Positions 9,105-57,870 of a DNA stretch of 64,000 nucleotides are shown in pieces. The stretch lies in contig OZ025784.1 of NCBI GenBank assembly GCA_964019425.1, positions 620,001 through 684,000 on the forward strand. The letters are read 5' to 3'. The position numbers and the translations under genes were made by a program. Each line of letters begins with the position of its first letter. Position 1 is the first letter of the stretch. The notes under the pieces were generated by a model. That model worked only from the letters and a program-made list of their open reading frames with translations, made no database searches and was not told where the DNA came from. This DNA comes from Flectonema sp. DT1601 (taxonomy: Eukaryota).

Positions 9105-10012
9105 CTACACAAGAAGCAGTGCGTTAATGCATCCATCGCACTCAGGGTTGTTGGTGACTTGCGCGTATTTTCCCCAAATTACTTTACCTCCAGGTGTGAC
9201 GAGACCAAGTTCTGATGTGTTGACTTCTAAGATTGTTCCCTTTGTAATGATATTCAAGTTTGTGTACATTCTACTTTGAGGATTCTTCTTTACGCCAATG
9301 ATAGATAAGCAAAAGGTTGTTTTTAACTCCGGGTGAGTTACGTGTGCTTTTTTAAATCGAAGAGCCATAGGTCTGATAAACCTTTCGTATTTTGGAGCCT
9401 TACGAGTAAAGTTCTCACCAACAAATGATACTTTGTTAATCATTCTCTTCCATTGAGCGTTTCTACGTTTACCTGATTTTACTACCTGAAACATTTGATC
9501 TTCTTGAAGAGCTTTAACCTTAGTGATTGGAACGTCCCATTTTCCTGCTTTTTCTTTACGCTTTTGCTTCAATGTGTTTGATAAGATTTTAGCTCTATCA
9601 ACATTCTCACGATCCATTAAAAATGATGGGACGGCATGTTTTGGTCCAGCGTCTACCTTCTTTTCTGATGATTGTTTCTCTTCGTGAGCCTTTATCTTCT
9701 TCTGCATTTCGACCTTCTCTTGGTACCTCGCTCTTTGGGCGAGCTTGGCTCTCTTACCCGTCACTTTTTGCAAGAATTTCGACTGCTTGTGAACGGAACG
9801 CGCCTCCTTCTTTCGGCTGTTTAGTTTATTATTTTTTTTTTCTTTCTTTCTTTGTGTACAACCTGATTTCAACACCTCGTTAGCGTTTTCAGAACAGGCA
9901 GAAATTAAAAAAATTTAGAAAAATCTACATTTACTACATACAGACGCTCGAAGTGATCAAGACGAAATCCATATCTCTTCCTCGCCAGCTCAATGTGCTC
10001 ATTCTGAGGCAT
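9105..10012 (-). CDS. NSA2: Ribosome biogenesis protein NSA2; 2 exons
   Basis: Exon 1 10012-9942 ([24 protein letters not shown]), intron 9941-9817 (GTATGT...CTAAACAG), exon 2 RKKEAR...[10 protein letters not shown]...[23 protein letters not shown]. Confidence 0.95.
9843..9905 (-). ncRNA. Candidate intronic single-hairpin pseudouridylation guide RNA (AGA-box H/ACA-like)
   Basis: Lies within the NSA2 intron. Stems TCTGA/TCAGG and AACGCT/GGTGTT; pocket strands GCCTGT and TTGT are complementary to conserved SSU rRNA GCAA-UA-ACAGGU; AGA lies 14 nt downstream of the pocket. The lower stem is weak. Confidence 0.35.
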
Positions 10013-20939: not shown

Positions 20940-23900
20940 TCAAACCTGAAGCTTGGCATAAGTTGTTGGTGCGGCTCCGGCTGCATGGGTCTGACGTTGT
21001 TGCATTTCAGCCGCTGCTTTCTGTCCTTGCTTCTTTTTGTTGTGTAAAGTCCAACAGATTACAAGAGCTGTGACTACCAACAACAAAGCTCCGAACACAA
21101 CAAACTTGGTTATAGTTTCACTAGTGTCCTCAGACCAACCCTTTTGAAGCCAATACTGATCATTTTTATATTGGGGTGCTGATAAATAACTTGGAGACTC
21201 ATGGTACCAAGGTGATTCTCTCCATTTCGGGTCATTCTTTATGTAAATTCCGATAGGTGACTTGTCCCATTCTGGTGATGTCTCGTATGCAGTTTGCGGA
21301 GTAGATCCAACACAAAGTCCTTCGAAATTCCATAGACATTCAGGGAAACTTTCACAATTATTCTTAGTTTCGTATCGTCCGCAGTCAGATTTGCATTCTT
21401 CACCTGCACCGCTGTGTCCGTATTCACATGCTTCTAAGTCTTTACATCCTGCTTCAACTGTAACGATGCTACACGAAGATATACATTGACCTTCTCCTAC
21501 TAAAGTTATCATCCAACGACAATCGAATTGTGCGTCACAGACATCCTTAGTCGGATGAATAGGACAAGGCAATGATGCAGGTTGTGCATTACCACCATGA
21601 CCACCACCACCACCACCTCCGCCATTTAATACAGAAAATGATCGCGACTGAGTGTCACACGAACTCCCTGACCAGGTACAACCTGTTGGACATGATCCTT
21701 GAGGATGTCCTGAGCATAGTACGCAGGCACTTGTTTCCCACAGGCATCCAGTTTTTGCTCCACATAAAGTTGAATCTGTCATGTCAGAACACATCTTTAA
21801 CCTGCAAGCTGATGTTTCCCAAAAACAATCAGTTTTTAAGTTGCAAGGCGCTTCAACAGTTTCTGAAGCACACGATGAGACAACACACTGTGAACCTGTC
21901 CATCCACAGTCAGAATCAGCAGCACAGGTACCGACATCAGTATTTAATGAACAATCCTTTTCACACATAGAAGCTACAGTATTCCACTTACACATAGCAC
22001 CATCATCACATGTTGATTGGGTTGTTAAATAAGTACAGTTATCAGAACAGGTGTTGGCAGTCCCATCCCAAGAGCATTTCAAATTTGAACAGTCTAACGC
22101 TGTGGTCATAGCAGAGCAAGGCGTCTTAATACAAACAGAATTACCAGTATCCCATTGGCATTCACTTAGTGGAGTACATTCTGTTTGCGTCATTTTTGAA
22201 CAATTCATATTGCAGGTAACAGAAGATGTGTCCCACGAACACTTTTGTTGTGCCTCACACTCAGATTTGATTGTTTTTATTGTACAATTAGCTGAAATAT
22301 CACATGTGGTGGTGGTGGTGTCCCACATGCATCCTGTCTTTGCACTGCAATCTGGTTCTGTTTGTTTTCCAGTACAGTTTACTTTTTGGCATTCTGTGTT
22401 CACTGTGTCCCATTCACATTGACCCAGTGCATCACAGCCTTGTGATGTTGTTTTGTTTGAACAGACATTGTTACCTGCTTCACATGATGTTGCTTGTGAA
22501 TCCCAAGTACAATCAGTCATGGCATTGCAATCTACTTCAGTTGTTTTAGTAGTACAACCACCACCTGATACACACATAGAAGTGTGTGCTTCCCATACGC
22601 AGGTTGCTGCAGCTGTGCAGTCTGCCTCAACTGTGTTTGCTGAACAACCAGCAGTTGCACACGTTGAACTTTGTGCATTCCAGGCACAGGTTGTATCCGC
22701 AGTGCAGATTGGTTCAGCTGTCTTGGTACTACAGTTGACAGGTGCAGCCGATGCCTCACAAGCCGAAGTATTCGTGTTCCACATGCAAGTAGATACAGCA
22801 GTGCAGTCTGCCTCAACTGACTTCGCAGTACAGTTGACAGGTGAGCAAACTGAAGTGTGTGAATCCCAAGCGCAGCTTGTTTCTGCAGTGCAAGCCGTTT
22901 GATTTGCTTTGGTACTGCAGTCTACGGGTGCAACCGATGATGTATCGCAAGCTGAGGTCTGCGTGTTCCACACGCAAGCGGACACAGCAGCGCAGTCTGC
23001 CTGAATTATCTTCGCGGTACAGTTAATCGCAAGTGGTGTTGATGAACAAGATGAAGCTTGAGCATTCCAGAAACAACTTGACACTGTGGCGCAATCTGTT
23101 TCATTGGCCTTCTTCAGGCAGGCATCAGCAGTTGGGGATGAAGCAGCACACGCTGAGGAGTGAGCATCCCATGAACAAGCTGCTATTGATTTACAATCAG
23201 ATTCAACTGCCTTTGTTGTGCAATCAACAGCGCCACATGTTGAGTGAGAAGAGCTCCATTCACAGTCAGGAGCAAGACACACGGGCTCTGTAGTCTTTGA
23301 CGAGCAGTCAACACCAGTTAAAGGCTTCGCTGCTGCTGTTATACATTTTGATAAATGGGCATCCCACGAACAGGTAGAAAGTGGTGTGCAATCACCTTCA
23401 ACAGTTTTTGTATCACAAGGCACTAAAGAACAGACAGAATGAGATGCTTCCCAACTACATTCTGGTGCAGAAGTACAATCCATTTCATGTTTAGATGAGC
23501 AATCGACGGAGGCTGCAACTGCGTCAGCGCATTTTGACGTCGTTGAGTTCCAGTCGCAGGAGGATAACGCCATGCAATCAGTTTGTGATTTTGTGTCACA
23601 TTTTATTTCACCACAGGTTTTTTTTGATGTGTTCCATTCACAAGTTCCCTTACATTCTGATTGAGGTTTTGATGAACAACCAGTGGGGTGTCCTCCTCCA
23701 CCTCCATGACCCCCTCCACCATGAGATGCAGCAGCGCAGGAAGAAGCTTTAGAATCCCACGCGCAGCTGTGATACTTTGCGCACATCGTACTATTAAATG
23801 ATGGGCAGTCAGGTAGAATAACAGCACATGTTGAGGTTGTCGTATTCCAAGAGCATCCTTTCATCGGAGTGCAAACATCTTCTTTAAAACTAGCGCAGTT

Positions 23901-24326
23901 TAACTCACAAACATTACCAGCAGTCCAACCACAAGAAGGCATTTTAACACACAGTTGTTGTGCTCTTTGTCGTGCTAAATCAATACCACAGAGAGGACCT
24001 CCAGTAACTTCAAAAATACACTTTACTCCACTCCAGTAACATCCTTTTAATCCAACACACTTCTCTCTTGTGGAACAAGTGTCACAGCGAAGACACTGAG
24101 TTGGTTCTTTGCATTTCTCTTCAACACCAGACCATTCACAGGAGCTATTTCCCGAACAGAGTTGTTTATTTACAATTTTACAAGTCTCTGAACAAAGTGA
24201 AAAATCTCCTGTCAAACATCTTGTCAACACGCAATCTGTTAGGTTTTTTCTAATATCTGGACAACTCTCACCCCAACTCCCAACAATGACGGTCATCAAC
24301 AGTAATAATCGGATCATTTGGTTCAT
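20940..24326 (-). CDS. Cysteine-rich repeat type I membrane (surface) protein
   Basis: Signal peptide, then about 30 repeats of C-x(6-8)-C-x5-C-x-W-x(4-6)-C, Gly/His linkers, a TM helix (FVVFGALLLVVTALVICWTL) and a short tail ending TYAKLQV. Confidence 0.88.
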   Translation of the reverse strand: MNQMIRLLLLMTVIVGSWGESCPDIRKNLTDCVLTRCLTGDFSLCSETCKIVNKQLCSGNSSCEWSGVEEKCKEPTQCLRCDTCSTREKCVGLKGCYWSGVKCIFEVTGGPLCGIDLARQRAQQLCVKMPSCGWTAGNVCELNCASFKEDVCTPMKGCSWNTTTSTCAVILPDCPSFNSTMCAKYHSCAWDSKASSCAAASHGGGGHGGGGGHPTGCSSKPQSECKGTCEWNTSKKTCGEIKCDTKSQTDCMALSSCDWNSTTSKCADAVAASVDCSSKHEMDCTSAPECSWEASHSVCSLVPCDTKTVEGDCTPLSTCSWDAHLSKCITAAAKPLTGVDCSSKTTEPVCLAPDCEWSSSHSTCGAVDCTTKAVESDCKSIAACSWDAHSSACAASSPTADACLKKANETDCATVSSCFWNAQASSCSSTPLAINCTAKIIQADCAAVSACVWNTQTSACDTSSVAPVDCSTKANQTACTAETSCAWDSHTSVCSPVNCTAKSVEADCTAVSTCMWNTNTSACEASAAPVNCSTKTAEPICTADTTCAWNAQSSTCATAGCSANTVEADCTAAATCVWEAHTSMCVSGGGCTTKTTEVDCNAMTDCTWDSQATSCEAGNNVCSNKTTSQGCDALGQCEWDTVNTECQKVNCTGKQTEPDCSAKTGCMWDTTTTTCDISANCTIKTIKSECEAQQKCSWDTSSVTCNMNCSKMTQTECTPLSECQWDTGNSVCIKTPCSAMTTALDCSNLKCSWDGTANTCSDNCTYLTTQSTCDDGAMCKWNTVASMCEKDCSLNTDVGTCAADSDCGWTGSQCVVSSCASETVEAPCNLKTDCFWETSACRLKMCSDMTDSTLCGAKTGCLWETSACVLCSGHPQGSCPTGCTWSGSSCDTQSRSFSVLNGGGGGGGGHGGNAQPASLPCPIHPTKDVCDAQFDCRWMITLVGEGQCISSCSIVTVEAGCKDLEACEYGHSGAGEECKSDCGRYETKNNCESFPECLWNFEGLCVGSTPQTAYETSPEWDKSPIGIYIKNDPKWRESPWYHESPSYLSAPQYKNDQYWLQKGWSEDTSETITKFVVFGALLLVVTALVICWTLHNKKKQGQKAAAEMQQRQTHAAGAAPTTYAKLQV

Positions 24327-28257: not shown

Positions 28258-31200
28258 CTATTTAATTTCATTTAAATAAGTCGGATAATTGCCAACTGAC
28301 TGACCAGGTGGAGCTACTGCCTGCTGAGGCGGTGTTTTTGGTGGGATTCGAGGTGGTGCTGACGCCCCAATCGACGGTGTTTGTTGCTGCTCACCAGAGT
28401 CTGCGAAGAACCACTGACCTGTTTTTTCATCAAATCCGAATTTTTTATTTTTATCATCTGGTAGGATTGCTTGAGGGGTTTCATCATCTTCCTTTCGAGA
28501 CCAAAATGAAAATCCCCATCCAGATTTCCTTTTTGACTTTTGCATCTCTTCTGACAGGCTCTCAGCATTCGGAGTTGGTGAAGAAAGAGATCCGTCTTTT
28601 TTTTTCATAACTCCTTTTGTTGGTTTAGTAGCACCTCCTCCCCACAGTCGACTGATACCCCAACCACTACTTTTTGCTCCTTCTAAATGAAGCTTTGCTG
28701 ACTCTTTCAAATCATCCAATAGATGAAGAGCTCCAGGTGATAGGAGATTTTTGTGTTGCTCAACAGCTGTGATGGTAGACATACATGTTTCGTATTGTCC
28801 GTGTTCGAATAGCCACATTGCGAATGCTAATCGATATGGGTGTAAGTGATTCATCTGAAATGGTTTCTTTAATTGTTGTGTTATCGATCCATTCTGTTGC
28901 ATAAAGCCTTCAAGTAATTCAGTTTGAATAACACTTTGAGGACGAACAAAAGCAGATCTACAAACAGGTCCCTGATGAGTTCCCCCCAACAAGATTGGTA
29001 GTAACTGAAGACTTCTAACACCCCATCTTGCGATAATACATAATGCACAAAAATGAGAGGCGTCAATCTCACCCAAATGAAGTAGTTTTTCCATCAATGA
29101 AGAGATGACTTGAGTTGTAAATTGTCCCATAGGCAGTTTCAGTATTGCGAGTAGAATGGATTTCCAACCCGTATCTTTTGATACATCAATACTATCCATG
29201 TGATCAATTGGGTTTATCTCTTGACCAACAAGTAACGCATGAAATAATGGTGATTGTGAACAAAGTGACTTCGCGTGTTCCAACTGAACAGATTTCCATG
29301 CATCTTGATCAGTACAAGCAGCTATAGCCATTGCTGTACTAAATTCTTTATTTGCTACCGCAAATGGTATAGCTTCTTGGGGAGTCGCAAGCAATAACAA
29401 TCTCTGGACAGTTCTTAAAGTTTCTTCACGTTTGTGGTCTTCAACACGACGATTTTGTTCTCTTTTAAGAGCGCGTTGAAGTCGTTCTTCGGTTGACAAC
29501 TGTTGATCATCTTCCAAACCCGTAGGAATAGGATGATCTACCATAGGACTCTGTAGATCACCAACAACTATTTCATTAAGTAACGCAGTTATATAGGGTC
29601 CCCAATGCTGTTGGTCCCAAGAATACGAATTCGACGCGTAATAATTCAAAATGCTCTGAAGCGGTCCGAATGCCGGGAAACCAGAAATATAAGCGGAGAC
29701 CACCTCTTTCGACGAGTTCGTCAGATTCGCAGGTCGGTCAGTCAGGACGCTATATTCTGCTGGACCATTATCGACACCGTGATAACCAAATACATCATCA
29801 AATGGAATGATTGAAACAGAACTTCCATTTTCAGATTTTTTGTTCAAATTTGCGATTATCAACTTTCCCGCAGTAAACGAGATCGGACATCCTCTTTTAA
29901 CGGGCATTGCCGCATAATCTCCACCCCCTGGAGAATATTGGTGAGATACTTCAGTAGGTGAGACCGACTGTTCGATGTCTGTTTTTGGTTTTGAATTCAC
30001 CGGATCAACAGGTTGTTCTTCTACCCTACTATACTGTTCTTCCTGTTGTTGTTGTTGTTGTGGTTGTTGTTGCTGTTGCTGTTGTTGGTACTGCTGTAGT
30101 AATGACTCGTAAGTCTGATACTCTAATGGTTTATCCCAAACACTTTCATTAGTAAGTTGATTATAGTAATAAAGTTGTCCAGAATCTGGAACCACCAACT
30201 CAACCCAATTAGTTGATGGAAGTTGTGATGCCATCGGAGACTGCGGTAGAACTTCACAAGATCCCTGACTAAATGTTCTAAACGGATCATCAACACTTGG
30301 CTGCTTAAGTAGAATATCATCAACTTCATAATCAGGTTTTCTATCATCAGTTAGTTCATTACTAACTTCAGGTTCTAATTCTATTTTAGGTGCTAAGAAT
30401 GGGTCCACTTCACCAGGTGCTGATTCTACTTCACCAGGTGGGCTTACATCACCAGGTGCTGGGTTTACGTCACCAGGTGTTGGGTTTACGTCACCAGGTG
30501 CTGGGTTTACGTCATCAGGTGAGTCATCTGTTATTTGTTCATCAGGTTTACTTGACTCCTGTTTCGGTTGTTCTGTCACAACTTCTTTCTGAGTATCGTT
30601 GTCAGAAACCTGCTGTGGTGGTGCTGAGTCAGTTTGTTTAATTTCATCAGACGCCACAGCTTCAGGTAAGCTCCGGTCAGTTGGCGGATCGTATTTCGAA
30701 TTCTCGAGTAAGTCTTCATCACAGTCAGAGAAAGATCCAAAACTTTTGAATGAATCAGTCCCTTCCTCTACACCTGTAGTGTCTTGTGGCTCTTCTACAC
30801 CCGTAATGTCTTCTGGTTCATCTTGTTTAGGGTGGTCTGGTTCTTGGTTGGGTATTTCTTGTTCTTGATCGGAGTGATTGGAATGCTCTTCTGTTTTTGA
30901 TACATCCTCAATCACATCAGTTTCTGTAACCTCTTCTGTTACTTCTGGTGCTGGTACTGGTGCTGTCGGTGGTGTTGGCGCTAATGGTGGTGTTGGTGCT
31001 GATACTGTCGGTGGCGTTGGTGCTGATACTGTCGGTGGTGTTGGTGAAGGAGCTCGTTTTGGCTTCGGTAGTGGTGCCCCAAAAGCATCCAACTCAACGT
31101 CATCGTCTTCAGGCTGCTCATTGCCGGCTGACATCGGCTCTGATTGACTTCTGTCTAGATGACTTTCTGACTGGCTAAGATGTAATCCAGTGAGTACATC

Positions 31201-33840
31201 CTTTTGACTTTCCACGCGTTGAATTTGACTACTCGAGTTTCCAAATTCCGCGGAATGCGGTCCTGCTGATGGTGTAATCGGTGGGAGGGGACCCAGTTCC
31301 GACATTTTCGAACTCAACTCCATTGTGTGAAGAGCATCTACTGCACTCTCTTGATGATCCAAAGGTGTTCCGGTTGATGGTTTTGATTTGATAATCTCAC
31401 CACTGAAAGGATCAACAACATCATCACTTGAAGCTATCAGTTCTTGTTCTTGTTGTTGTTTTACTTCCCACTCCTCAGTAGGATTTCTTAAATCAGAATT
31501 ACTAACTTCTTGAGATGGGAACGGATTAGTTTGTTCCTCCTCTTTGCTATCATTGGACTGCAGAGGCTGAGGTGCAAAGGGATCGATCTGCTCTGATACA
31601 ACTTCACCATCAGTGCCTGACTGCAGAGGTTGATTTCCATCTTCCTGTTGACCAGCAAAAGGATCGGCCTCAGCCTTTTCCAATGTGAGTTCATTATCAA
31701 TTTGGGACTGCGAAGGTTGGATGTCGTTACTCTGTTGTTCAGCAAAAGGATCGACTTCAGCATTTCCTGATGAGAGTTTATTTTCAACAAGTAGAGGTTG
31801 CTGCTGATCACCAAGAGGATCAGTATTTAGATTTAAGCAATCTCCCGATTGCTGTGACGCAAAAGGATCGGCGTCACCGTGCCCTGGCGCGAGTTCATTG
31901 TTAGGGATTGACTGCGTAAGTTGACTTTCATCATTCTGCTGACCAGCAAAAGGATCATCCTGAGGCTGCTGCAGCGAAAAGGAATCCATTGCACTCTGCC
32001 CTGACACAATTTCGTTTTCAGCGTCGGGCTGCGGAGGTTGATCTTCATCATCTTGCTGACCAGCAAAAGGATCGACTTCAGCATTTCCTGATGTGAGTTG
32101 GTTATCGGTACTACCTGAATGTGGAGGTTGGCTTTCATCACTTTCCTGACCAGCAAAGGGATCGGCCGTGAGATCCGAAGTTTCTTCTGGCTGCGAGGCA
32201 AAAGGATCGATATCACTCTGTCCCGATGCGAGTTTGTTTTCGGTGTTGGACTGCGATGTCTCATTCTGCTGACCAGCAAAGGGATCGGCCGTGAGATCCG
32301 AAGTTTCTTCTGGCTGCGAGGCAAAAGGATCGATATCACTCTGTCCCGATGCGAGTTTGTTTTCGGTGTTGGACTGCGATGTCTCATTCTGCTGACCAGC
32401 AAAGGGATCGGCCGTGAGATCCGAAGTTTCTTCTGGCTGCGAGGCAAAAGGATCGATATCACTCTGTCCCGATGCGAGTTTGTTTTCGGTGTTGGACTGC
32501 GATGTCTCATTCTGCTGACCAGCAAAGGGATCGGCCGCCAGATTTGAGGTCTCCCCCGGTTGTTGTGACGCAAAAGGATCGACATCACCCTGTCCTGATG
32601 TGAGTTCATTGCTGAGAGTTGACTGCGGAGGGTCATTCTGCTGATCAGCAAAGGGATCGGCCGTGAGATCCGAAGTTTCTTCTGGCTGTGAGGCAAAGGG
32701 ATCCACCTGTTCCGATGCGAGTTTGTTTTCGATGTCATTCAGTTGACCAGCAAAAGGATCGGCCGCGAGATTTGAGGTCTCCTCCGGTTCCTGTGACGCA
32801 AAAGGATCGACATCACCCTGTCCCGATGTGAGTTCATTGCTGAGAATTGACTGCGGAGGTTGATTTAAATCACCTTGTTGGACAGTAAATGGATCAGCCA
32901 CAGTATCTTCTGATCGCTTAGACTCGACTACATTCCTTTGGTTATCAGATGGGTTAAGCTGTTCAGTGTTTGGATGAACATTAAAAGGATCGACTTCATG
33001 TCCTTCTAGTTCTTGAGGTATAATATCTTGTTGTGAAGTAATCGGATTTAAAGTATTTTGAGGAGTTGTGGATGTGAAGGGATCGCCTTCCTGAGACGCA
33101 AACACTTCTTGAGCTAACGAAGGTCTTCTCTGAGATGAAAATAGATCATCGGGATCACTAGCTGTGGGATGTTGTTGTATAAATGAATCTGTTTCTGACT
33201 CACGAGTACTGACCTGACCAGTGAACGGGTCATTAGTCTCTGGTGGTTGAGTAGTGTCTTTATCACCATTTATAGTGGAGACAAATGGTTGGGGATCTGA
33301 AAAGATATCGTCGTCGGGTTGTGGTTGTTTTGATTCGATGGCCGATTTATATTTATCATCACTCTGCTCCCAGAAACTATCACTGAAATCACTTCCTGTT
33401 GTAATGTTGTTAGAGTTACGACTAACTATGAAATCATCACTAGGAGGGGGTGCGCCATCAAGTACGCGACGCTTAACTGTCGACTCGTCATGAGTGAAGT
33501 GGGATTCATTAGTAGTTATGGAAGCCGCTACTTGTTTTGAAACAACAGCAGACGAGTCAAAATAATCGGTTTGAATATGTTCACTTAAATCTGCTTCACG
33601 AACACCAACAGCAGTAATCGCAGCATCTGCAAACCACGCGAATCTTCCATCATCAAATTTCAGTCTGCAACTTGAATCCACCGGGTCAATTTCACTTATT
33701 TCTGCTTCACAGCCACATCGTTTTTCTTTCGATCGGCTCCAAGTTCCTAATTTGTTGCACAAATCTTTAACAACTACCGGATCTGATAATACTCTTACTT
33801 TACATCCTACAACTAACCCTTGGTACCCCCCTTCCGGCAT
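28258..33840 (-). CDS. SEC16: COPII scaffold Sec16-like protein with N-terminal SH3-like domain, DPF-rich region and WW domain
   Basis: Central conserved-domain motifs (EIDASHFC, LLGG, QTELLE, LHPYRLAFAMWLFEHG) and the C-terminal signature ILPDDKNKKFGFDEKTGQW followed by a Pro-rich tail. WW domain WVELVVPDSGQLYYYNQLTNESVWDKP. First in-frame ATG is 33840. Confidence 0.82.
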   Translation of the reverse strand: MPEGGYQGLVVGCKVRVLSDPVVVKDLCNKLGTWSRSKEKRCGCEAEISEIDPVDSSCRLKFDDGRFAWFADAAITAVGVREADLSEHIQTDYFDSSAVVSKQVAASITTNESHFTHDESTVKRRVLDGAPPPSDDFIVSRNSNNITTGSDFSDSFWEQSDDKYKSAIESKQPQPDDDIFSDPQPFVSTINGDKDTTQPPETNDPFTGQVSTRESETDSFIQQHPTASDPDDLFSSQRRPSLAQEVFASQEGDPFTSTTPQNTLNPITSQQDIIPQELEGHEVDPFNVHPNTEQLNPSDNQRNVVESKRSEDTVADPFTVQQGDLNQPPQSILSNELTSGQGDVDPFASQEPEETSNLAADPFAGQLNDIENKLASEQVDPFASQPEETSDLTADPFADQQNDPPQSTLSNELTSGQGDVDPFASQQPGETSNLAADPFAGQQNETSQSNTENKLASGQSDIDPFASQPEETSDLTADPFAGQQNETSQSNTENKLASGQSDIDPFASQPEETSDLTADPFAGQQNETSQSNTENKLASGQSDIDPFASQPEETSDLTADPFAGQESDESQPPHSGSTDNQLTSGNAEVDPFAGQQDDEDQPPQPDAENEIVSGQSAMDSFSLQQPQDDPFAGQQNDESQLTQSIPNNELAPGHGDADPFASQQSGDCLNLNTDPLGDQQQPLLVENKLSSGNAEVDPFAEQQSNDIQPSQSQIDNELTLEKAEADPFAGQQEDGNQPLQSGTDGEVVSEQIDPFAPQPLQSNDSKEEEQTNPFPSQEVSNSDLRNPTEEWEVKQQQEQELIASSDDVVDPFSGEIIKSKPSTGTPLDHQESAVDALHTMELSSKMSELGPLPPITPSAGPHSAEFGNSSSQIQRVESQKDVLTGLHLSQSESHLDRSQSEPMSAGNEQPEDDDVELDAFGAPLPKPKRAPSPTPPTVSAPTPPTVSAPTPPLAPTPPTAPVPAPEVTEEVTETDVIEDVSKTEEHSNHSDQEQEIPNQEPDHPKQDEPEDITGVEEPQDTTGVEEGTDSFKSFGSFSDCDEDLLENSKYDPPTDRSLPEAVASDEIKQTDSAPPQQVSDNDTQKEVVTEQPKQESSKPDEQITDDSPDDVNPAPGDVNPTPGDVNPAPGDVSPPGEVESAPGEVDPFLAPKIELEPEVSNELTDDRKPDYEVDDILLKQPSVDDPFRTFSQGSCEVLPQSPMASQLPSTNWVELVVPDSGQLYYYNQLTNESVWDKPLEYQTYESLLQQYQQQQQQQQPQQQQQQEEQYSRVEEQPVDPVNSKPKTDIEQSVSPTEVSHQYSPGGGDYAAMPVKRGCPISFTAGKLIIANLNKKSENGSSVSIIPFDDVFGYHGVDNGPAEYSVLTDRPANLTNSSKEVVSAYISGFPAFGPLQSILNYYASNSYSWDQQHWGPYITALLNEIVVGDLQSPMVDHPIPTGLEDDQQLSTEERLQRALKREQNRRVEDHKREETLRTVQRLLLLATPQEAIPFAVANKEFSTAMAIAACTDQDAWKSVQLEHAKSLCSQSPLFHALLVGQEINPIDHMDSIDVSKDTGWKSILLAILKLPMGQFTTQVISSLMEKLLHLGEIDASHFCALCIIARWGVRSLQLLPILLGGTHQGPVCRSAFVRPQSVIQTELLEGFMQQNGSITQQLKKPFQMNHLHPYRLAFAMWLFEHGQYETCMSTITAVEQHKNLLSPGALHLLDDLKESAKLHLEGAKSSGWGISRLWGGGATKPTKGVMKKKDGSLSSPTPNAESLSEEMQKSKRKSGWGFSFWSRKEDDETPQAILPDDKNKKFGFDEKTGQWFFADSGEQQQTPSIGASAPPRIPPKTPPQQAVAPPGQSVGNYPTYLNEIK
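32146..32514 (-). repeat. Coding tandem repeat, 3 near-identical 123-bp units (41 aa, two DPF motifs each), with degenerate flanking units
   Basis: The unit start ctgaccagcaaagggatcggcc recurs at 32146, 32269, 32392 and 32515. Confidence 0.95.
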
Positions 33841-35615: not shown

Positions 35616-38600
35616 CTACTGCCGACCTCGACCTGTTTTAATTGTTGTTAACAAAACTCAAAAAAACATTTTCATTACTAAAACAACAGGAACAGCAACA
35701 AGAAAGTATACTTCAGCCAGGGATAACTGTCATTTCGGAGTATAATCAATAACTGATTTCATAAGGGGAAAGAAGTGGTTTTTCATCATATGTATTTATG
35801 GAACAGGTGATCAACAGCAACAGCAATAAGAAAGTATACTTCAGCCAGGGATAACTGTCATTTCGGAGTATAATCAATAAATGATTTCATAAGGGGAAAG
35901 AAGTGGTTTTTCATCATATGTATTTATGGAACAGGTGATCAACTGCAACAGCAACAGCAATAAGAATGTTTACTTCAGCCAGGGATAACTGTCATTTCGG
36001 AGTATAATCAATAAATGATTTCATAAGGGGAAAGAAGTGGTTTTTCATCATATGTATTTATGGAACAGGTGATCAACAGCAACAGCAATAAGAAAGTATA
36101 CTTCAGCCAGGGATAACTGTCATTTCGGAGTATAATCAATAAATGATTTCATAAGGGGAAAGAAGTGGTTTTTCATCATATGTATTTATGGAACAGGTGA
36201 TCAACAGCAACAGCAATAAGAAAGTATACTTCAGCCAGGGATAACTGTCATTTCGGAGTATAATCAATAACTGATTTCATAAGGGGAAAGAAGTGGTTTT
36301 TCATCATATGTATTTATGGAACAGGTGATCAACAGCAACAGCAACAAGAAAGTATACTTCAGCCAGGGATAACTGTCATTTCGGAGTATAATCAATAAAT
36401 GATTTCATAAGGGGAAAGAAGTGGTTTTTCATCATATGTATTTATGGAACAGGTGATCAACTGCAACAGCAACAGCAATAAGAATGTTTACTTCAGCCAG
36501 GGATAACTGTCATTTCGGAGTATAATCAATAAATGATTTCATAAGGGGAAAGAAGTGGTTTTTCATCATATGTATTTATGGAACAGGTGATCAACAGCAA
36601 CAGCAACAAGAAAGTATACTTCAGCCAGGGATAACTGTCATTTCGGAGTATAATCAATAACTGATTTCATAAGGGGAAAGAAGTGGTTTTTCATCATATG
36701 TATTTATGGAACAGGTGATCAACAGCAACAGCAACAAGAAAGTATACTTCAGCCAGGGATAACTGTCATTTCGGAGTATAATCAATAAATGATTTCATAA
36801 GGGGAAAGAAGTGGTTTTTCATCATATGTATTTATGGAACAGGTGATCAACAGCAACAGCAACAAGAAAGTATACTTCAGCCAGGGATAACTGTCATTTC
36901 GGAGTATAATCAATAACTGATTTCATAAGGGGAAAGAAGTGGTTTTTCATCATATGTATTTATGGAACAGGTGATCAACAGCAACAGCAATAAGAATGTT
37001 TACTTCAGCCAGGGATAACTGTCATTTCGGAGTATAATCAATAAATGATTTCATAAGGGGAAAGAAGTGGTTTTTCATCATATGTATTTATGGAACAGGT
37101 GATCAACAGCAACAGCAACAAGAAAGTATACTTCAGCCAGGGATAACTGTCATTTCGGAGTATAATCAATAAATGATTTCATAAGGGGAAAGAAGTGGTT
37201 TTTCATCATATGTATTTATGGAACAGGTGATCAACTGCAACAGCAACAGCAATAAGAATGTTTACTTCAGCCAGGGATAACTGTCATTTCGGAGTATAAT
37301 CAATAAATGATTTCATAAGGGGAAAGAAGTGGTTTTTCATCATATGTATTTATGGAACAGGTGATCAACAGCAACAGCAACAAGAAAGTATACTTCAGCC
37401 AGGGATAACTGTCATTTCGGAGTATAATCAATAAATGATTTCATAAGGGGAAAGAAGTGGTTTTTCATCATATGTATTTATGGAACAGGTGATCAACTGC
37501 AACAGCAACAGCAATAAGAATGTTTACTTCAGCCAGGGATAACTGTCATTTCGGAGTATAATCAATAAATGATTTCATAAGGGGAAAGAAGTGGTTTTTC
37601 ATCATATGTATTTATGGAACAGGTGATCAACTGCAACAGCAACAGCAATAAGAATGTTTACTTCAGCCAGGGATAACTGTCATTTCGGAGTATAATCAAT
37701 AAATGATTTCATAAGGGGAAAGAAGTGGTTTTTCATCATATGTATTTATGGAACAGGTGATCAACTGCAACAGCAACAGCAATAAGAATGTTTACTTCAG
37801 CCAGGGATAACTGTCATTTCGGAGTATAATCAATAAATGATTTCATAAGGGGAAAGAAGTGGTTTTTCATCATATGTATTTATGGAACAGGTGATCAACA
37901 GCAACAGCAACAAGAAAGTATACTTCAGCCAGGGATAACTGTCATTTCGGAGTATAATCAATAAATGATTTCATAAGGGGAAAGAAGTGGTTTTTCATCA
38001 TATGTATTTATGGAACAGGTGATCAACTGCAACAGCAACAGCAATAAGAATGTTTACTTCAGCCAGGGATAACTGTCATTTCGGAGTATAATCAATAAAT
38101 GATTTCATAAGGGGAAAGAAGTGGTTTTTCATCATATGTATTTATGGAACAGGTGATCAACAGCAACAGCAACAAGAAAGTATACTTCAGCCAGGGATAA
38201 CTGTCATTTCGGAGTATAATCAATAACTGATTTCATAAGGGGAAAGAAGTGGTTTTTCATCATATGTATTTATGGAACAGGTGATCAACAGCAACAGCAA
38301 CAAGAAAGTATACTTCAGCCAGGGATAACTGTCATTTCGGAGTATAATCAATAAATGATTTCATAAGGGGAAAGAAGTGGTTTTTCATCATATGTATTTA
38401 TGGAACAGGTGATCAACAGCAACAGCAATAAGAATGTTTACTTCAGCCAGGGATAACTGTCATTTCGGAGTATAATCAATAAATGATTTCATAAGGGGAA
38501 AGAAGTGGTTTTTCATCATATGTATTTATGGAACAGGTGATCAACAGCAACAGCAACAAGAAAGTATACTTCAGCCAGGGATAACTGTCATTTCGGAGTA

Positions 38601-41600
38601 TAATCAATAACTGATTTCATAAGGGGAAAGAAGTGGTTTTTCATCATATGTATTTATGGAACAGGTGATCAACAGCAACAGCAACAAGAAAGTATACTTC
38701 AGCCAGGGATAACTGTCATTTCGGAGTATAATCAATAACTGATTTCATAAGGGGAAAGAAGTGGTTTTTCATCATATGTATTTATGGAACAGGTGATCAA
38801 CAGCAACAGCAACAAGAAAGTATACTTCAGCCAGGGATAACTGTCATTTCGGAGTATAATCAATAAATGATTTCATAAGGGGAAAGAAGTGGTTTTTCAT
38901 CATATGTATTTATGGAACAGGTGATCAACAGCAACAGCAATAAGAAAGTATACTTCAGCCAGGGATAACTGTCATTTCGGAGTATAATCAATAAATGATT
39001 TCATAAGGGGAAAGAAGTGGTTTTTCATCATATGTATTTATGGAACAGGTGATCAACAGCAACAGCAATAAGAAAGTATACTTCAGCCAGGGATAACTGT
39101 CATTTCGGAGTATAATCAATAACTGATTTCATAAGGGGAAAGAAGTGGTTTTTCATCATATGTATTTATGGAACAGGTGATCAACAGCAACAGCAATAAG
39201 AAAGTATACTTCAGCCAGGGATAACTGTCATTTCGGAGTATAATCAATAACTGATTTCATAAGGGGAAAGAAGTGGTTTTTCATCATATGTATTTATGGA
39301 ACAGGTGATCAACAGCAACAGCAACAAGAAAGTATACTTCAGCCAGGGATAACTGTCATTTCGGAGTATAATCAATAAATGATTTCATAAGGGGAAAGAA
39401 GTGGTTTTTCATCATATGTATTTATGGAACAGGTGATCAACAGCAACAGCAACAAGAAAGTATACTTCAGCCAGGGATAACTGTCATTTCGGAGTATAAT
39501 CAATAAATGATTTCATAAGGGGAAAGAAGTGGTTTTTCATCATATGTATTTATGGAACAGGTGATCAACAGCAACAGCAATAAGAAAGTATACTTCAGCC
39601 AGGGATAACTGTCATTTCGGAGTATAATCAATAAATGATTTCATAAGGGGAAAGAAGTGGTTTTTCATCATATGTATTTATGGAACAGGTGATCAACAGT
39701 AACAGCAATAAGAAAGTATACTTCAGCCAGGGATAACTGTCATTTCGGAGTATAATCAATAACTGATTTCATAAGGGGAAAGAAGTGGTTTTTCATCATA
39801 TGTATTTATGGAACAGGTGATCAACAGCAACAGCAACAAGAAAGTATACTTCAGCCAGGGATAACTGTCATTTCGGAGTATAATCAATAACTGATTTCAT
39901 AAGGGGAAAGAAGTGGTTTTTCATCATATGTATTTATGGAACAGGTGATCAACAGCAACAGCAACAAGAAAGTATACTTCAGCCAGGGATAACTGTCATT
40001 TCGGAGTATAATCAATAAATGATTTCATAAGGGGAAAGAAGTGGTTTTTCATCATATGTATTTATGGAACAGGTGATCAACAGCAACAGCAATAAGAAAG
40101 TATACTTCAGCCAGGGATAACTGTCATTTCGGAGTATAATCAATAAATGATTTCATAAGGGGAAAGAAGTGGTTTTTCATCATATGTATTTATGGAACAG
40201 GTGATCAACAGCAACAGCAATAAGAATGTTTACTTCAGCCAGGGATAACTGTCATTTCGGAGTATAATCAATAAATGATTTCATAAGGGGAAAGAAGTGG
40301 TTTTTCATCATATGTATTTATGGAACAGGTGATCAACAGCAACAGCAACAAGAAAGTATACTTCAGCCAGGGATAACTGTCATTTCGGAGTATAATCAAT
40401 AACTGATTTCATAAGGGGAAAGAAGTGGTTTTTCATCATATGTATTTATGGAACAGGTGATCAACTGCAACAGCAACAAGAAAGTATACTTCAGCCAGGG
40501 ATAACTGTCATTTCGGAGTATAATCAATAAATGATTTCATAAGGGGAAAGAAGTGGTTTTTCATCATATGTATTTATGGAACAGGTGATCAACAGCAACA
40601 GCAATAAGAATGTTTACTTCAGCCAGGGATAACTGTCATTTCGGAGTATAATCAATAAATGATTTCATAAGGGGAAAGAAGTGGTTTTTCATCATATGTA
40701 TTTATGGAACAGGTGATCAACAGCAACAGCAACAAGAAAGTATACTTCAGCCAGGGATAACTGTCATGTCGGAGTATAATCAATAACTGATTTCATAAGG
40801 GGAAAGAAGTGGTTTTTCATCATATGTATTTATGGAACAGGTGATCAACTGCAACAGCAACAAGAAAGTATACTTCAGCCAGGGATAACTGTCATTTCGG
40901 AGTATAATCAATAAATGATTTCATAAGGGGAAAGAAGTGGTTTTTCATCATATGTATTTATGGAACAGGTGATCAACAGCAACAGCAATAAGAAAGTATA
41001 CTTCAGCCAGGGATAACTGTCATTTCGGAGTATAATCAATAAATGATTTCATAAGGGGAAAGAAGTGGTTTTTCATCATATGTATTTATGGAACAGGTGA
41101 TCAACAGCAACAGCAATAAGAAAGTATACTTCAGCCAGGGATAACTGTCATTTCGGAGTATAATCAATAACTGATTTCATAAGGGGAAAGAAGTGGTTTT
41201 TCATCATATGTATTTATGGAACAGGTGATCAACAGCAACAGCAACAAGAAAGTATACTTCAGCCAGGGATAACTGTCATTTCGGAGTATAATCAATAAAT
41301 GATTTCATAAGGGGAAAGAAGTGGTTTTTCATCATATGTATTTATGGAACAGGTGATCAACAGCAACAGCAATAAGAATGTTTACTTCAGCCAGGGATAA
41401 CTGTCATTTCGGAGTATAATCAATAAATGATTTCATAAGGGGAAAGAAGTGGTTTTTCATCATATGTATTTATGGAACAGGTGATCAACAGCAACAGCAA
41501 CAAGAAAGTATACTTCAGCCAGGGATAACTGTCATTTCGGAGTATAATCAATAAATGATTTCATAAGGGGAAAGAAGTGGTTTTTCATCATATGTATTTA

Positions 41601-43585
41601 TGGAACAGGTGATCAACAGCAACAGCAACAAGAAAGTATACTTCAGCCAGGGATAACTGTCATTTCGGAGTATAATCAATAAATGATTTCATAAGGGGAA
41701 AGAAGTGGTTTTTCATCATATGTATTTATGGAACAGGTGATCAACAGCAACAGCAATAAGAATGTTTACTTCAGCCAGGGATAACTGTCATTTCGGAGTA
41801 TAATCAATAAATGATTTCATAAGGGGAAAGAAGTGGTTTTTCATCATATGTATTTATGGAACAGGTGATCAACAGCAACAGCAACAAGAAAGTATACTTC
41901 AGCCAGGGATAACTGTCATTTCGGAGTATAATCAATAACTGATTTCATAAGGGGAAAGAAGTGGTTTTTCATCATATGTATTTATGGAACAGGTGATCAA
42001 CTGCAACAGCAACAGCAATAAGAATGTTTACTTCAGCCAGGGATAACTGTCATTTCGGAGTATAATCAATAACTGATTTCATAAGGGGAAAGAAGTGGTT
42101 TTTCATCATATGTATTTATGGAACAGGTGATCAACAGCAACAGCAACAAGAAAGTATACTTCAGCCAGGGATAACTGTCATTTCGGAGTATAATCAATAA
42201 CTGATTTCATAAGGGGAAAGAAGTGGTTTTTCATCATATGTATTTATGGAACAGGTGATCAACTGCAACAGCAACAAGAAAGTATACTTCAGCCAGGGAT
42301 AACTGTCATTTCGGAGTATAATCAATAACTGATTTCATAAGGGGAAAGAAGTGGTTTTTCATCATATGTATTTATGGAACAGGTGATCAACTGCAACAGC
42401 AACAAGAAAGTATACTTCAGCCAGGGATAACTGTCATTTCGGAGTATAATCAATAACTGATTTCATAAGGGGAAAGAAGTGGTTTTTCATCATATAAATT
42501 AAAAAGAAACTTTGATGCGAAAGAAGCACACCTTTGCCTCCGCGGCCGCCGCGATTGCCACCTCCTCCACGTTCAGAGCGAGAACCTCCCTTGCGTGATG
42601 GAGCAGAATTAGATTGCGCGTTATGATTATTAATATTGGCGTTGTTGTTGTTATTATTATTATTGTTGTTGTTGTCGTTGATTATTGGATTATTAATGTT
42701 ATTACTGGTGTTGTTGTTTTTGTTGTTAATAGCAGAGGAGGTGGACTCAGGTGATTGCCTGTTAGGCTTTCTCATATCATCAGGTTGGTTCTTAACTTTA
42801 ACTTGAATCTTAGTTGGGAGTGGTGCCTTATCTTTTTCTTTATCTCTGTCCTCTTTATCTCTATCGTGGCGGTCTCTTTCTCTGTTATCCCTGTCGCGGT
42901 CGCGTTTCCTGTCTTTACCTCCACGAGAGATGACTCCTCCTCCACCTCGTCCTCCAGATTTGTGACCTCCTCTTCCTTTTTCAGATTTAATTTGAAGACC
43001 TCGTCTGTGTCTGCCACCTCTTCTATTGGTTGCGTTAGGACCCCATAGGTAATCTTTGACCGCCTCTGTTAGCGGTGTTTCTGTTGCTTTTGGTTTACTC
43101 TTTTCATCTTTTTTATTAGCCAACCAGGCATCCAGAGCTTCTTCTTTTGGAGTTGGTGGTGCTGGAGCTTCTCGCTGAGCTTTCCAAGCAAGAAAGTCTT
43201 CATCTTCATGAATGGTGTTGAGAAGTGAATCATCGTGTTGTTTTGATGTGGAAGGAATTTGATGATTTGGTGCGAACTCAACTGTAACCTTACTGGTGTA
43301 ACCTTTACTGTCGGTGAATGATCGTCCATCAAATTGCTCATGAAACCTTCTGACGTACTCAATTTTTGAAAACACAACAGAAGCAAAACTAGGAACTAAT
43401 TTCATTCGAGATAGTTTACCTTTTTCGTAATGCAGCCAGGCAACTTCGGATAAAATTTCCTCTCCAACATTTTCTTTTACAATTTGTAAAAACCCGTCTT
43501 CAGTTAAATTCCACGGCAGGTGTCGAACTACAATTTTTTGTTTCTTTTCAAACCATCTGGTCATTTTGACTTTTTTATCGTCCAT
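35616..43585 (-). CDS. UPF3: Nonsense-mediated decay factor UPF3 (Smg4); 2 exons separated by a 6,899-nt snoRNA-filled intron
   Basis: UPF3 RRM-like domain KIVVRHLPWNLTE...FDGRSFTDSKG...VEFAPNHQIP, ETPL motif and basic/RGG tail. Donor AAAG|GTGTGC at 42531 and acceptor TAAAACAG|GT at 35633 give ...RGGRGGKG-RGRQ* (TAG 35618-35616), in frame and continuing the RGG tail. Confidence 0.85.
35708..35795 (-). ncRNA. Box C/D snoRNA, dual guide for LSU rRNA (representative 3'-most copy of 53)
   Basis: Minus strand: ATAC-AT-[C]ATGATGA-AAAACCA-CTTCTTTCCCC-TT-[D']ATGA-AATCAGTTA-[C']TTGATTA-TACTCCGAAATGA-CAGTTATCCCTG-G-[D]CTGA-A-GTAT. Terminal stem ATAC/GTAT. The 12-nt and 11-nt guides match conserved LSU rRNA CAGGGAUAACUG and GGGGAAAGAAG. 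Confidence 0.92.
42412..42495 (-). ncRNA. Box C/D snoRNA, 5'-most copy of the array (C box 38 nt downstream of the UPF3 donor)
   Basis: C box 42493-42487 and D box 42420-42417. Array similarity ends just upstream of the C box, so the boundary coincides with the snoRNA 5' end. Confidence 0.9.
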
Positions 43586-51221: not shown

Positions 51222-52481
51222 TTACTTTTCCTTTTCCTCCATATCTTCCTCACCTTCAGGTGCCTCCTTGTCAGGTGCACTGGAGTCATCGTCGTCTTCT
51301 TCTTTGTCTTCCTTCTTTGGTTTAAATGCAAGTACAAGAAGTCCAATTACGATGAGTGCTGAAAGAGACCCGGCAGCGGCGATACCGGCAGTTCCATTTG
51401 TGTCATCATCGTTATCAATAGACATTGGAACTGATGGGTTAACAAGAACTGGAGGTGGGACAGGTGTTTGATCAATTGCTTGGCTAGACGATGTTGCGAC
51501 AGTAAGCGCAGGTTCACCCCCAGCAATAGCTGCTGCAGTTGCAGCAGTAACAGCAGCAGTATGAGCTGTTGCCAATTCAGCAGCAGTCTTCTTTGATCTT
51601 CCTTGAAAGTACACTCTAACAACTCCGGCCTGTAAGACACCTACTTCTCTGGATGCTACAACAGGTCTTACAGCACATGCCGTACAACCTGAATTAATCC
51701 ATTCAGCTACCCGAGTAACTGTACATTGTCTCAAACAAGTGATTAATTCATTTCCAGATGCAGTATCACCAAGTGTTGCGGCCATGGTGTTAATATAGGC
51801 TTCACTAAAAAAGTATGTTCTAGCAGTATTAGTAAGCCCCTGAAGAATAACTTCGGAAGTGAAGTGTCTGTCTCCAGCAGGTACAGGGACCTTGGTGGCA
51901 CCAGTAACGGCCGGAGAGTTCGTACTTGGGGACAATAAAATCAAACTCGCCAAGAAGTCAACGTAAAATACGTATCTTTCACTGTGCTGGGTAATAGTAG
52001 TGGGTGTTGCTGCAGCACGACGTGCCATAACGATGTATGAGTAACGGAAAGCTGGATCAGTCGCAGCTCTGGTTCTGGTAAAAGTCATTGTAGTCACTCC
52101 TCCAGTAGTGGAAACAGCTGCGGCAGGTGTTGAAAGAGTTTGAACACTTGCGATGTCAGTTCTTGTCGCCTGAACATCAGCTGCTACCTTAGCAGGTAAC
52201 GTATAACGATTTATCGCTCCAGCATTATCAGCTACAACAACAGTAGAACCAATCATCTGTTGGAGGCTGTTCCATCCTACTCCGAACCAACCACTTCCTG
52301 CAGCTGCTCGTAAATGAAAGTTGATCGCCGTACCCTCTGGAGTCATTCCCCAGTTCAATGTTAATCCACCTTGAGTTGTTTTACATCTGTATCCCAACAC
52401 GTCTGGAGTATCACACACTGTTACCTGTGAGGAGGCAAATCCCGCCAGGGAGAACAACACTGCTGATGACAAGAACTTCAT
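51222..52481 (-). CDS. DOMON-domain type I membrane protein
   Basis: Signal peptide, LTLNWG...GWFGVGWN..QMIGS...MTFTR...TQH (DOMON with Met/His heme-ligand positions), TM helix and acidic tail. Confidence 0.8.
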   Translation of the reverse strand: MKFLSSAVLFSLAGFASSQVTVCDTPDVLGYRCKTTQGGLTLNWGMTPEGTAINFHLRAAAGSGWFGVGWNSLQQMIGSTVVVADNAGAINRYTLPAKVAADVQATRTDIASVQTLSTPAAAVSTTGGVTTMTFTRTRAATDPAFRYSYIVMARRAAATPTTITQHSERYVFYVDFLASLILLSPSTNSPAVTGATKVPVPAGDRHFTSEVILQGLTNTARTYFFSEAYINTMAATLGDTASGNELITCLRQCTVTRVAEWINSGCTACAVRPVVASREVGVLQAGVVRVYFQGRSKKTAAELATAHTAAVTAATAAAIAGGEPALTVATSSSQAIDQTPVPPPVLVNPSVPMSIDNDDDTNGTAGIAAAGSLSALIVIGLLVLAFKPKKEDKEEDDDDSSAPDKEAPEGEEDMEEKEK

Positions 52482-56706: not shown

Positions 56707-57870
56707 TTATTGATCAGTCTCGTTATCTACAGAATCGTCAGAGAGATATTTGCAATCAGGAACGGTTACTGTTTTTAATGGCACGTCATCGTCACTACTA
56801 TCACCAGAGTCTGAGTCAGTTTCATCTCCGAAATCAGAATCCTTAGCGACCAAGGTTAGATATGCTATTCCTAAAATCAGTATAAGACTGACTGCTATAA
56901 AAAAGTGGTAGTTCGTTCTCTTATAGCTGATTTCGACTGTGATCGTTGAGTCTTCAAAGACGCCACCGACATAAGCAGCAGATTTCCATCCAGCTTCACT
57001 CACAGTACTGCCATCAAGAATTGATTTTCCGTTTGCTTCCATTTTATAACCGATATTTAAACTTGAGGGTTCTTCCTTTTCAGTGTTAGGTTCTTCACAA
57101 CCGTAACACTCACCGTCTTTCCATTCGCTTTCTGTTGATGTTCTGGTTACTTTACATACCTGAATGCATTTAATTTCTGAATCAGAACTCAATTCGATAT
57201 TAATCTCAGCATTAAATGACTCTGCAGCAGATAAGAAGCTGCTTATCGTTACATCAGAAACAATATACGATATAGATGTTTGTTGTATTCCATTTTCTTC
57301 TTCAATGCTGTATTCAGGTCCATGCTCAGGTAGGTTTTTTATATCCAATTGAGAGAAGGCATTGCTTAAGACTGATGAGTATTTTACTAAAAATGATCCT
57401 TTTGAGTTCGAAGAATGTTGAGATAAGTCTCTCTGTGTTTCACTGTATCCTAATATGATCCATTCATCAGGAAGTTCATTGCATGGGAATTCGAGATATC
57501 TTCTGAATGACAAAACCCTCATTCCATTTTCAGTAGCTAAATCAATGTCTGCTAACCACTCTGGAGAACTCGCAGTAGATTTAATAACTGAAGGGTTCTT
57601 ATCAATCAATGAATACGATTTTATCTCATCACCAGTATCAATGACTGTTGTTGTTCCCTGCATGTATGGTAATTCGTTAAATCCGACAGCCATCCATCCA
57701 TATTCTGAAGGAACTTCTGCTACGTATTCAACAAACTGACCGTTAAAAGCAGCACCCCAGTTTACGGTCATCTCTCCTACGGTATAACTACACTCATAAC
57801 CTGCTCTTGTGGGTTGGTCACATCCCACTACTGCTGTCAGTAAGGAGATGGTTGTGGTTATTCTTATCAT
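56707..57870 (-). CDS. DOMON-domain type I membrane protein, diverged paralogue of 51222-52481
   Basis: GYEC...MTVNWG...GWMAVGFN..YMQGT...LSFRR...SQH. It shares the second-domain Cys pattern (CIQVCKVTR...W...C..C vs CLRQCTVTR...W...C..C), plus TM and acidic tail. Confidence 0.8.
   Translation of the reverse strand: MIRITTTISLLTAVVGCDQPTRAGYECSYTVGEMTVNWGAAFNGQFVEYVAEVPSEYGWMAVGFNELPYMQGTTTVIDTGDEIKSYSLIDKNPSVIKSTASSPEWLADIDLATENGMRVLSFRRYLEFPCNELPDEWIILGYSETQRDLSQHSSNSKGSFLVKYSSVLSNAFSQLDIKNLPEHGPEYSIEEENGIQQTSISYIVSDVTISSFLSAAESFNAEINIELSSDSEIKCIQVCKVTRTSTESEWKDGECYGCEEPNTEKEEPSSLNIGYKMEANGKSILDGSTVSEAGWKSAAYVGGVFEDSTITVEISYKRTNYHFFIAVSLILILGIAYLTLVAKDSDFGDETDSDSGDSSDDDVPLKTVTVPDCKYLSDDSVDNETDQ

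Follow-up and report, generated by a model that had tools for sequence, protein, structure and literature searches.

A 53-copy tandem array in Flectonema encodes a predicted composite dual methylation guide and most likely lies in the last intron of UPF3

Why would a diplonemid-like genome carry dozens of copies of one small RNA gene side by side, and what would that RNA do? The window, which is the whole 64,000-nt stretch of Flectonema sp. DT1601 DNA analysed here, contains 53 tandem copies of a box C/D snoRNA-like unit. The original prediction was made on the copy at 35708..35795 (minus strand), the last of the 53 in transcription order. It held that one RNA joins two guides that yeast and human carry on separate snoRNAs, that this RNA could clamp two strands of the peptidyl-transferase centre as a folding chaperone, and that such a stoichiometric role could explain the amplification. 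We analysed the unit, its array, its host gene, its targets and its relatives. Feature coordinates are collected in Table 1, and published work is cited from those parts of each paper that were available.

Each unit carries one box C/D core on the minus strand. The core runs from box C through 7 nt, the first guide, 2 nt, box D', a 9-nt loop and box C', and then through 13 nt, the second guide and 1 nt to box D. The terminal boxes C (RUGAUGA) and D (CUGA) were invariant in 53 of 53 copies. The internal D'/C' pair can form a K-loop, as in a box C/D guide, and the sixth base of C', a U, is able to pair with the first base of D', an A, by a compensating change. The terminal stem comprised just 3-4 bp, beyond one mismatch, and neither unit nor spacer folded better than shuffled sequence. 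Judged by boxes, guides and registers, the array product would be an intact box C/D dual methylation guide, for which methylation is predicted.

Table 1. Coordinates of the UPF3 gene, the tandem array and the elements of the last snoRNA copy in the window.
Feature	Position	Strand	Remarks
UPF3 main coding exon	42532..43585	-	Pfam PF03467
Predicted GT-AG last intron of UPF3	35634..42531	-	6898 nt, containing the array
Predicted last UPF3 coding exon	35617..35633	-	GRGRQ, then stop
Tandem array of 53 snoRNA units	35684..42495	-	128-nt units, 8 of 134 nt
First snoRNA copy in transcription order	42417..42493	-	38 nt past the first base of the predicted intron
Inter-unit spacer	35790..35840	-	51 nt (57 nt in long units)
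C-to-D core, last copy	35713..35789	-	77 nt
Box C	35783..35789	-	ATGATGA, sequence of the last copy
D' guide	35765..35775	-	CTTCTTTCCCC, 11 nt, SNORD12/snR190 box A type, 2 nt before D'
D'+5 base	35767	-	predicted to pair with the yeast-G2395 equivalent (target numbering of PMC8536666)
Box D'	35759..35762	-	ATGA variant
Box C'	35743..35749	-	TTGATTA
D guide	35718..35729	-	CAGTTATCCCTG, 12 nt, snR38/SNORD1 type, 1 nt before D
D+5 base	35721	-	predicted to pair with the yeast-G2815 equivalent
Box D	35713..35716	-	CTGA

The units are arranged head-to-tail with 97% matches between copies, and the window contains the 12-nt guide exactly 53 times, where chance would give 0.15. The 52 full units differ at seven columns and by one 6-nt indel (8 units); core loops account for two of the columns, and the spacer for the other five and the indel. 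Apart from the two loop positions the core is identical in all 53 units. The loop variants at unit position 37 are G and T, in a genomic ratio of 19:34. No variable column (0/7) fell within the 45 box or guide bases, which supports the composite guide, the conservation signal being marginal (P about 0.048). Seven of ten pairs of common variants showed all four combinations, and the units, which fall into eleven types and one unique last unit, followed one another in non-periodic order. Such combinations and order argue for unequal exchange or conversion rather than simple assembly duplication, and it is likely that the array grew, and is homogenised, by unequal exchange. No hairpin suited to be a processing signal was found in the inter-unit spacer (z +1.65). 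A CRISPR reading of the repeats (CRISPR-DR66 match, 19.8 of 45 bits) was rejected on the absence of variable spacers.

Upstream of the array on the same strand stands UPF3. Its protein had four matches, the best after itself being a transcript-derived protein (P0002, 67%); UPF3 of Diplonema papillatum was 55% identical to the window protein, followed by a fungal protein (E 9e-6). By this one protein the host is diplonemid-like. The unspliced UPF3 frame continues into the first snoRNA copy. Splicing from the GT at 42531 to the AG at 35634 would give a predicted protein of 356 aa ending in GGKGRGRQ, and P0002 ends in GGKGGRGR. This acceptor was picked among 20 candidate AGs by the likeness to the P0002 end and by its A-rich ACAG context; A-rich ACAG acceptors are common to the apparent introns of other window genes. 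The array thus most likely fills a predicted 6.9-kb last intron of UPF3 in the sense direction. A database protein (P0001, 383 aa; 42434-43585, minus strand) is the unspliced UPF3 reading through the first snoRNA copy. UPF3 is an NMD factor and the predicted intron stands five codons ahead of the stop, which invites the question of intron retention.

The guides were scored on LSU rDNA fragments of other organisms. Seventeen eukaryotic fragments were fetched from prokaryote assemblies by a pattern containing both target motifs; because they were preselected for these motifs, the pairing shows specificity and not the breadth of conservation or variability. All three fetched fragments tested matched Rfam LSU_rRNA_eukarya. 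Both guides paired perfectly through D+5, over 12 bp at D and 11 bp at D', in 5/5 fragments, so that rRNA complementarity of at least 10 nt through D+5 was found for both in this preselected LSU set. When the two spacers were shuffled 3000 times and compared with one 2250-nt fragment, a pairing of 12 bp at D arose in one shuffle and of 11 bp at D' in 12 shuffles, and none (0/3000) matched both guide lengths. Other C/D guides elsewhere in the window gave no match to the partial LSU fragments, which hold no SSU or 5' LSU targets. A search for the LSU motifs in viral contigs found one shortened LSU-like fragment among 5 loci, and a second scan found none. The prokaryote-assembly stretches with eukaryotic LSU rDNA motifs (L112-L128), which we estimate at about 240, are probably contamination.

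In the fetched fragments the two target sites lie 402-424 nt apart. In 14/14 fragments scored, the six bases directly 3' of target 1 were complementary to a stretch that overlaps the start of target 2, the other 3 of the 17 being outside the allowed gap range. One rRNA helix, which we take to be the base of helix 74 (H74), therefore connects target 1 at its 3' end with target 2 at its 5' end. Because the targets flank the two strands of this helix, binding of both at the same time is topologically feasible and plausible. In the naming used here, HBII-99 corresponds to SNORD12, and snR38A-C to SNORD1. The target of snR190 box A is yeast G2395 (PMC8536666), Gm2815 is the snR38 target and corresponds to human Gm4362 in a table of PMC8817022, and a Giardia table connects snR190 with MBII-99 (PMC11427974). 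Several parts of the original prediction thus stood: the spacings of 1 nt to D and 2 nt to D' are correct by coordinates, the assignment to the G2395 and G2815 sites agrees with both the pairing and the Rfam registers, and the adjacency of the targets in the rRNA fold is reflected in the complementarity flanking one helix.

Within the window, no Rfam family reached its gathering score. The unit aligned over its whole length to SNORD12 (RF00581) at 18.4-19.4 bits against a gathering score of 43, and its 3' half aligned to snoR38 (RF00213) at 22.3-24.8 bits against 45. In the SNORD12 consensus 2 nt separate the guide from D', which is the register of the array guide, and the snoR38 consensus carries its guide 1 nt before CUGA, with the same sequence and register as the array D guide. 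The snoR38 guide, however, stands at the first (D') box of the consensus, whereas that of the array stands at the terminal D box. Plasmodium snoR09 (RF01586) matched at 18.9 bits, again with the same guide register. The kinship proposed with SNORD12 and snR38 thus held for the guide registers and fell short in score, and the array RNA is not a threshold member of either family.

Is the combination of these two guides found elsewhere? Our comparison covered trypanosomatids, Dictyostelium, Giardia, Plasmodium and metagenome contigs, with plants and animals covered solely via Rfam and sequence patterns and the published Euglena sets outside it. Among the sets compared, the pairing of G2395 and G2815 guides on one RNA is apparently lineage-specific, and literature searches, with Euglena snoRNA sets outside their scope, found no such pairing. 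The statement that other organisms use separate RNAs could be extended from yeast and human to trypanosomatids, Dictyostelium and Giardia. SNORD12/HBII-99 and snR190 carry the G2395 guide at D' in the same register as the array, but their 3' half holds a GCCAG-type extra element where that of the array holds the 12-nt G2815 guide at D. Conversely, snR38/SNORD1, snoR09 and GlsR6 have the same 12-nt G2815 guide in the same register without the G2395 guide; Plasmodium snoR09 has it at box D, like the array, but with an unrelated D' guide. Giardia uses two RNAs, GlsR5 and GlsR6 (PMC11427974). Dictyostelium methylates both sites, with CD2/3 directed to Gm2661 and CD6 to Gm3148 (PMC8817022), where we equate Gm2661 with G2395 from its 26-nt offset from Um2687.

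In trypanosomatids the G2395-type guide is at box D of TB9Cs2C7/LM35Cs3C2, with the partner site 26 nt away, and the G2815-type guide is at box D of TB11Cs1C2/TB3Cs1C-1/LM25Cs1C1, with the partner site ~22 nt away (PMC13487219, PMC3273796). In the 2'-O-methylation table of PMC13487219, these same-guide RNAs have LSU3_641 and LSU3_1254 as their assigned sites, each with a '+'. According to the parts available, these are dual-guide RNAs in repeated clusters, as T. brucei snoRNAs are, with the G2815 guide at D as in the array; they differ in being two RNAs, in carrying the G2395 guide at D and not at D', and in apparent T. brucei copy numbers of 8 and 2 for the TB9Cs2C7 and TB11Cs1C2 types against 53. 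They also lie outside cis-introns, which are nearly absent there, whereas the array is inside a predicted intron.

Other systems share some features with the array. Composite sRNAs of Pyrobaculum likewise combine D and D' guides from two families in one RNA (PMC6009581). These sRNAs and Dictyostelium CD13 have targets that are distant in sequence and near in structure, at other sites (PMC6009581, PMC8817022), and in the parts of these reports available no 53-copy intronic array is described for either. Euglena gracilis has multi-copy, linked snoRNA genes with tandem amplification (PMC2784804). The array differs from the clusters of Euglena, plants, Drosophila and SNORD115/116 in holding one RNA type 53 times in a single predicted intron. 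Intronic snoRNA clusters are found in plants and Drosophila, and SNORD115/116 occur in tandem arrays, their copies being orphan guides that each lie in their own intron.

The exact dual-guide pattern had no match in metagenome contigs, collections that may contain little diplonemid DNA. With a pattern of C box, G2395 guide, D' and D, 106 loci (90 distinct) were recovered, and 56 of the 90 passed a crude box filter, some probably by chance. Among the 90 distinct matches the longest complementarity to the G2815 region was 8 bases, none reaching 9, and the G2815 guide core was absent on either strand of all 106 loci. The AUGA/UGAUU D'/C' signature, which was not part of the search pattern, appeared in 14/56 filtered candidates, and two loci (L024 and L011) aligned to the 5' half of the array unit through C'. 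Seven of the 20 loci searched against Rfam matched SNORD12, all below threshold (25.6-32.7 bits). The shared D'/C' signature and the lack of G2815 guides in these candidates suggest that the 5' half belongs to the SNORD12/snR190 lineage and that the D guide was added.

An element pairing just upstream of G2395 was present in 8/56 filtered candidates, and the GCCAGT motif in 5/56 and in the SNORD12 consensus. The idea that GCCAG of that consensus is a relic G2815 guide was rejected. The element is out of register with box D, it pairs with the G2815 region over 6-8 nt at most, and in 3/5 cases it also pairs over 6 nt just upstream of G2395, which fits the extra base-pairing described for HBII-99 and snR190. 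Other loci were noted in passing. In one (L016; 154-251 and 424-540, minus strand), which is among the five candidates with GCCAGT, an snR190-like RNA has a U14 snoRNA ~170 nt upstream on the same strand, an echo of the dicistron that yeast snR190 is described as forming with U14 in the published passages available. Another (L030; 2-98, 610-727) holds a G2395-guide snoRNA with AUGA/UGAUUA that is flanked by inverted telomere-like repeats, an arrangement reminiscent of the gene-sized chromosomes of ciliates. Three loci on two contigs (L047, L072 and L075) share an identical 60-nt G2395-guide snoRNA, with the guide motif twice per locus.

We consider it probable that the locus encodes a composite dual methylation guide for the equivalents of yeast G2395 and G2815, in a 53-copy tandem array likely housed in the last intron of UPF3. 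The 5' half of the gene, with its guide and its AUGA/UGAUUA D'/C' pair, would be of SNORD12/snR190 type, and the guide at box D, where trypanosomatids and Plasmodium also have it, of snR38 type. The boxes, guides and registers, the shuffle null and the absence of the pairing elsewhere support this composite nature. The copies would be transcribed within the UPF3 pre-mRNA, separated by endonuclease cuts in the spacers and then trimmed; an endonuclease is proposed because exonucleases alone would leave a single long RNA. Each unit would bind the core proteins, and fibrillarin would methylate the base opposite the fifth nucleotide before D or D'. Methylation at the D' site is not guaranteed, since yeast G2395 is reported as unmethylated despite a perfect guide (PMC8536666). 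Copy number may compensate for a modestly transcribed host gene. Still, 53 copies are far above the 1-8 of T. brucei (from part 3 of 9 of the published table, with one column taken as copy number), and neutral expansion or host compensation may not be the whole story.

The best-surviving alternative is that the RNA was selected as a stoichiometric folding chaperone, which would bind both helix strands at once on every nascent large subunit, delay closure of the peptidyl-transferase loop until removed by a helicase, and need 53 copies to supply the required amount. We think this unlikely, even though several observations speak for it. The target-flanking bases lie immediately beside the two strands of one helix in every fragment scored, and the long reach of the array guides contrasts with the 22-26 nt between partner sites in trypanosomatids. 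Yeast snR190 works as a chaperone through the same box A (PMC8536666), and the corresponding G2395-region complementarity upstream of D' was found in the array RNA. Both snR190 and snR38 stay on pre-60S particles without Dbp7 (PMC8536666) and are enriched in the earliest pre-60S (PMC8994135), and long-range dual guides have been proposed as folding aids (PMC6009581, PMC8817022).

The likeness to snR190 is nevertheless incomplete. For its chaperone activity either box A or box B suffices, and box B pairs with domain I, not with the G2815 region (PMC8536666); the array RNA lacks the GCCAGT motif, which is likely the box B equivalent. The failure of snR190 to methylate G2395 has been ascribed to a divergent C'/D' motif (PMC8536666), whereas C'/D' of the array looks catalytically competent. 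Dual guides are moreover ordinary in T. brucei, where 79 C/D RNAs serve ~150 sites (PMC3273796). The step from dual guide to chaperone in the original prediction is thus not supported, given the missing box B motif, the well-formed C'/D' and the ordinariness of dual guides. The D guide also covers bases needed to close the helix between the targets, so that it would hold the region open and not clamp it shut. The yeast CLASH passages available contain nothing on snR190 pairing near G2815, and the G2395/G2815 pairing is absent from every other lineage compared.

Copy number points the same way. Trypanosomatids have one copy of the U3 gene but Euglena at least 14; a processing cause has been doubted for the latter, in which guide genes too are often multi-copy (PMC2784804). 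In the part of the T. brucei table available, apparent copy numbers lie at 2-6 for processing RNAs, much as for plain guides and cluster neighbours. Diplonemid 28S rRNA is unfragmented (PMC9082867), and a contiguous 28S implies no extra processing load. The further step from chaperone to amplification accordingly finds no support, copy number in relatives following cluster duplication and not function. The idea that dual guides act as folding chaperones has already been published, as have composite guides, and neither is new here. The strongest form of the proposal, in which a diplonemid fused snR190-type and snR38-type guides into an RNA that gates peptidyl-transferase closure once per 60S from a 53-copy UPF3-intron polycistron, we regard as doubtful. 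If the RNA is a composite methylation guide, binding at both sites, with the helix held open early in 60S assembly, would be a plausible side effect, not a shown purpose.

A less probable alternative, which we would put somewhat behind the chaperone, is a satellite-like expansion in which mature RNA comes from only one copy or a few, or the intron remains a single long RNA bearing many C/D protein modules, and the copy number has no function. With copies so nearly identical and variants shuffled among them, the sequence conservation may reflect recent expansion; the spacer also offers no hairpin usable as a cleavage signal. Against it, variation avoids boxes and guides, at the marginal level given above, all 53 copies are intact, and in trypanosomes an endonuclease cuts clusters for which no common signal is known (PMC3273796). 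That assembly inflated a shorter array to 53 copies is very improbable, given the non-periodic order of the unit types with their unique last unit and recombinant combinations, the unique flanks on both sides that join as a sensible spliced gene, and the position of the array within a 1.37-Mb contig.

Our literature searches found no paper on diplonemid snoRNAs, and the array appears undescribed for this group, an intron-borne polycistron as against the intron-free clusters of the sister kinetoplastids. Since other organisms make both methylations using separate RNAs, the pairing of the guides here offers a clean test of an old idea, seldom put to trial, that dual-guide C/D RNAs help to fold distant rRNA segments. 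The array also raises a question of processing, namely by what route 53 units whose spacers lack hairpins leave a single intron. If it is merely a reshuffled guide amplified by unequal crossing-over, it would illustrate snoRNA modularity well but add little else.

Several other genes were noted in the window. A frame at 9105-9707 (minus strand), with a short upstream exon near 10010 and one intron, presumably encodes a protein resembling the 60S assembly factor NSA2. The N-terminal half of a 974-aa ORF at 12019-14943 (minus strand) is, we assume, CAF1/PARN-type exonuclease-like, and a coiled-coil region follows it. The frame at 20940-24326 (minus strand) encodes a cysteine-rich repeat protein of 1128 aa, which probably has a signal peptide and, at its C-terminus, a membrane anchor. 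An acidic 1860-aa ORF (28258-33840) contains a 123-bp coding tandem repeat of 4.8 copies at 32146-32735. Finally, the membrane-anchored proteins at 51222-52481 and 56707-57870 (minus strand) have N-terminal domains that are similar by eye and are possibly paralogues.
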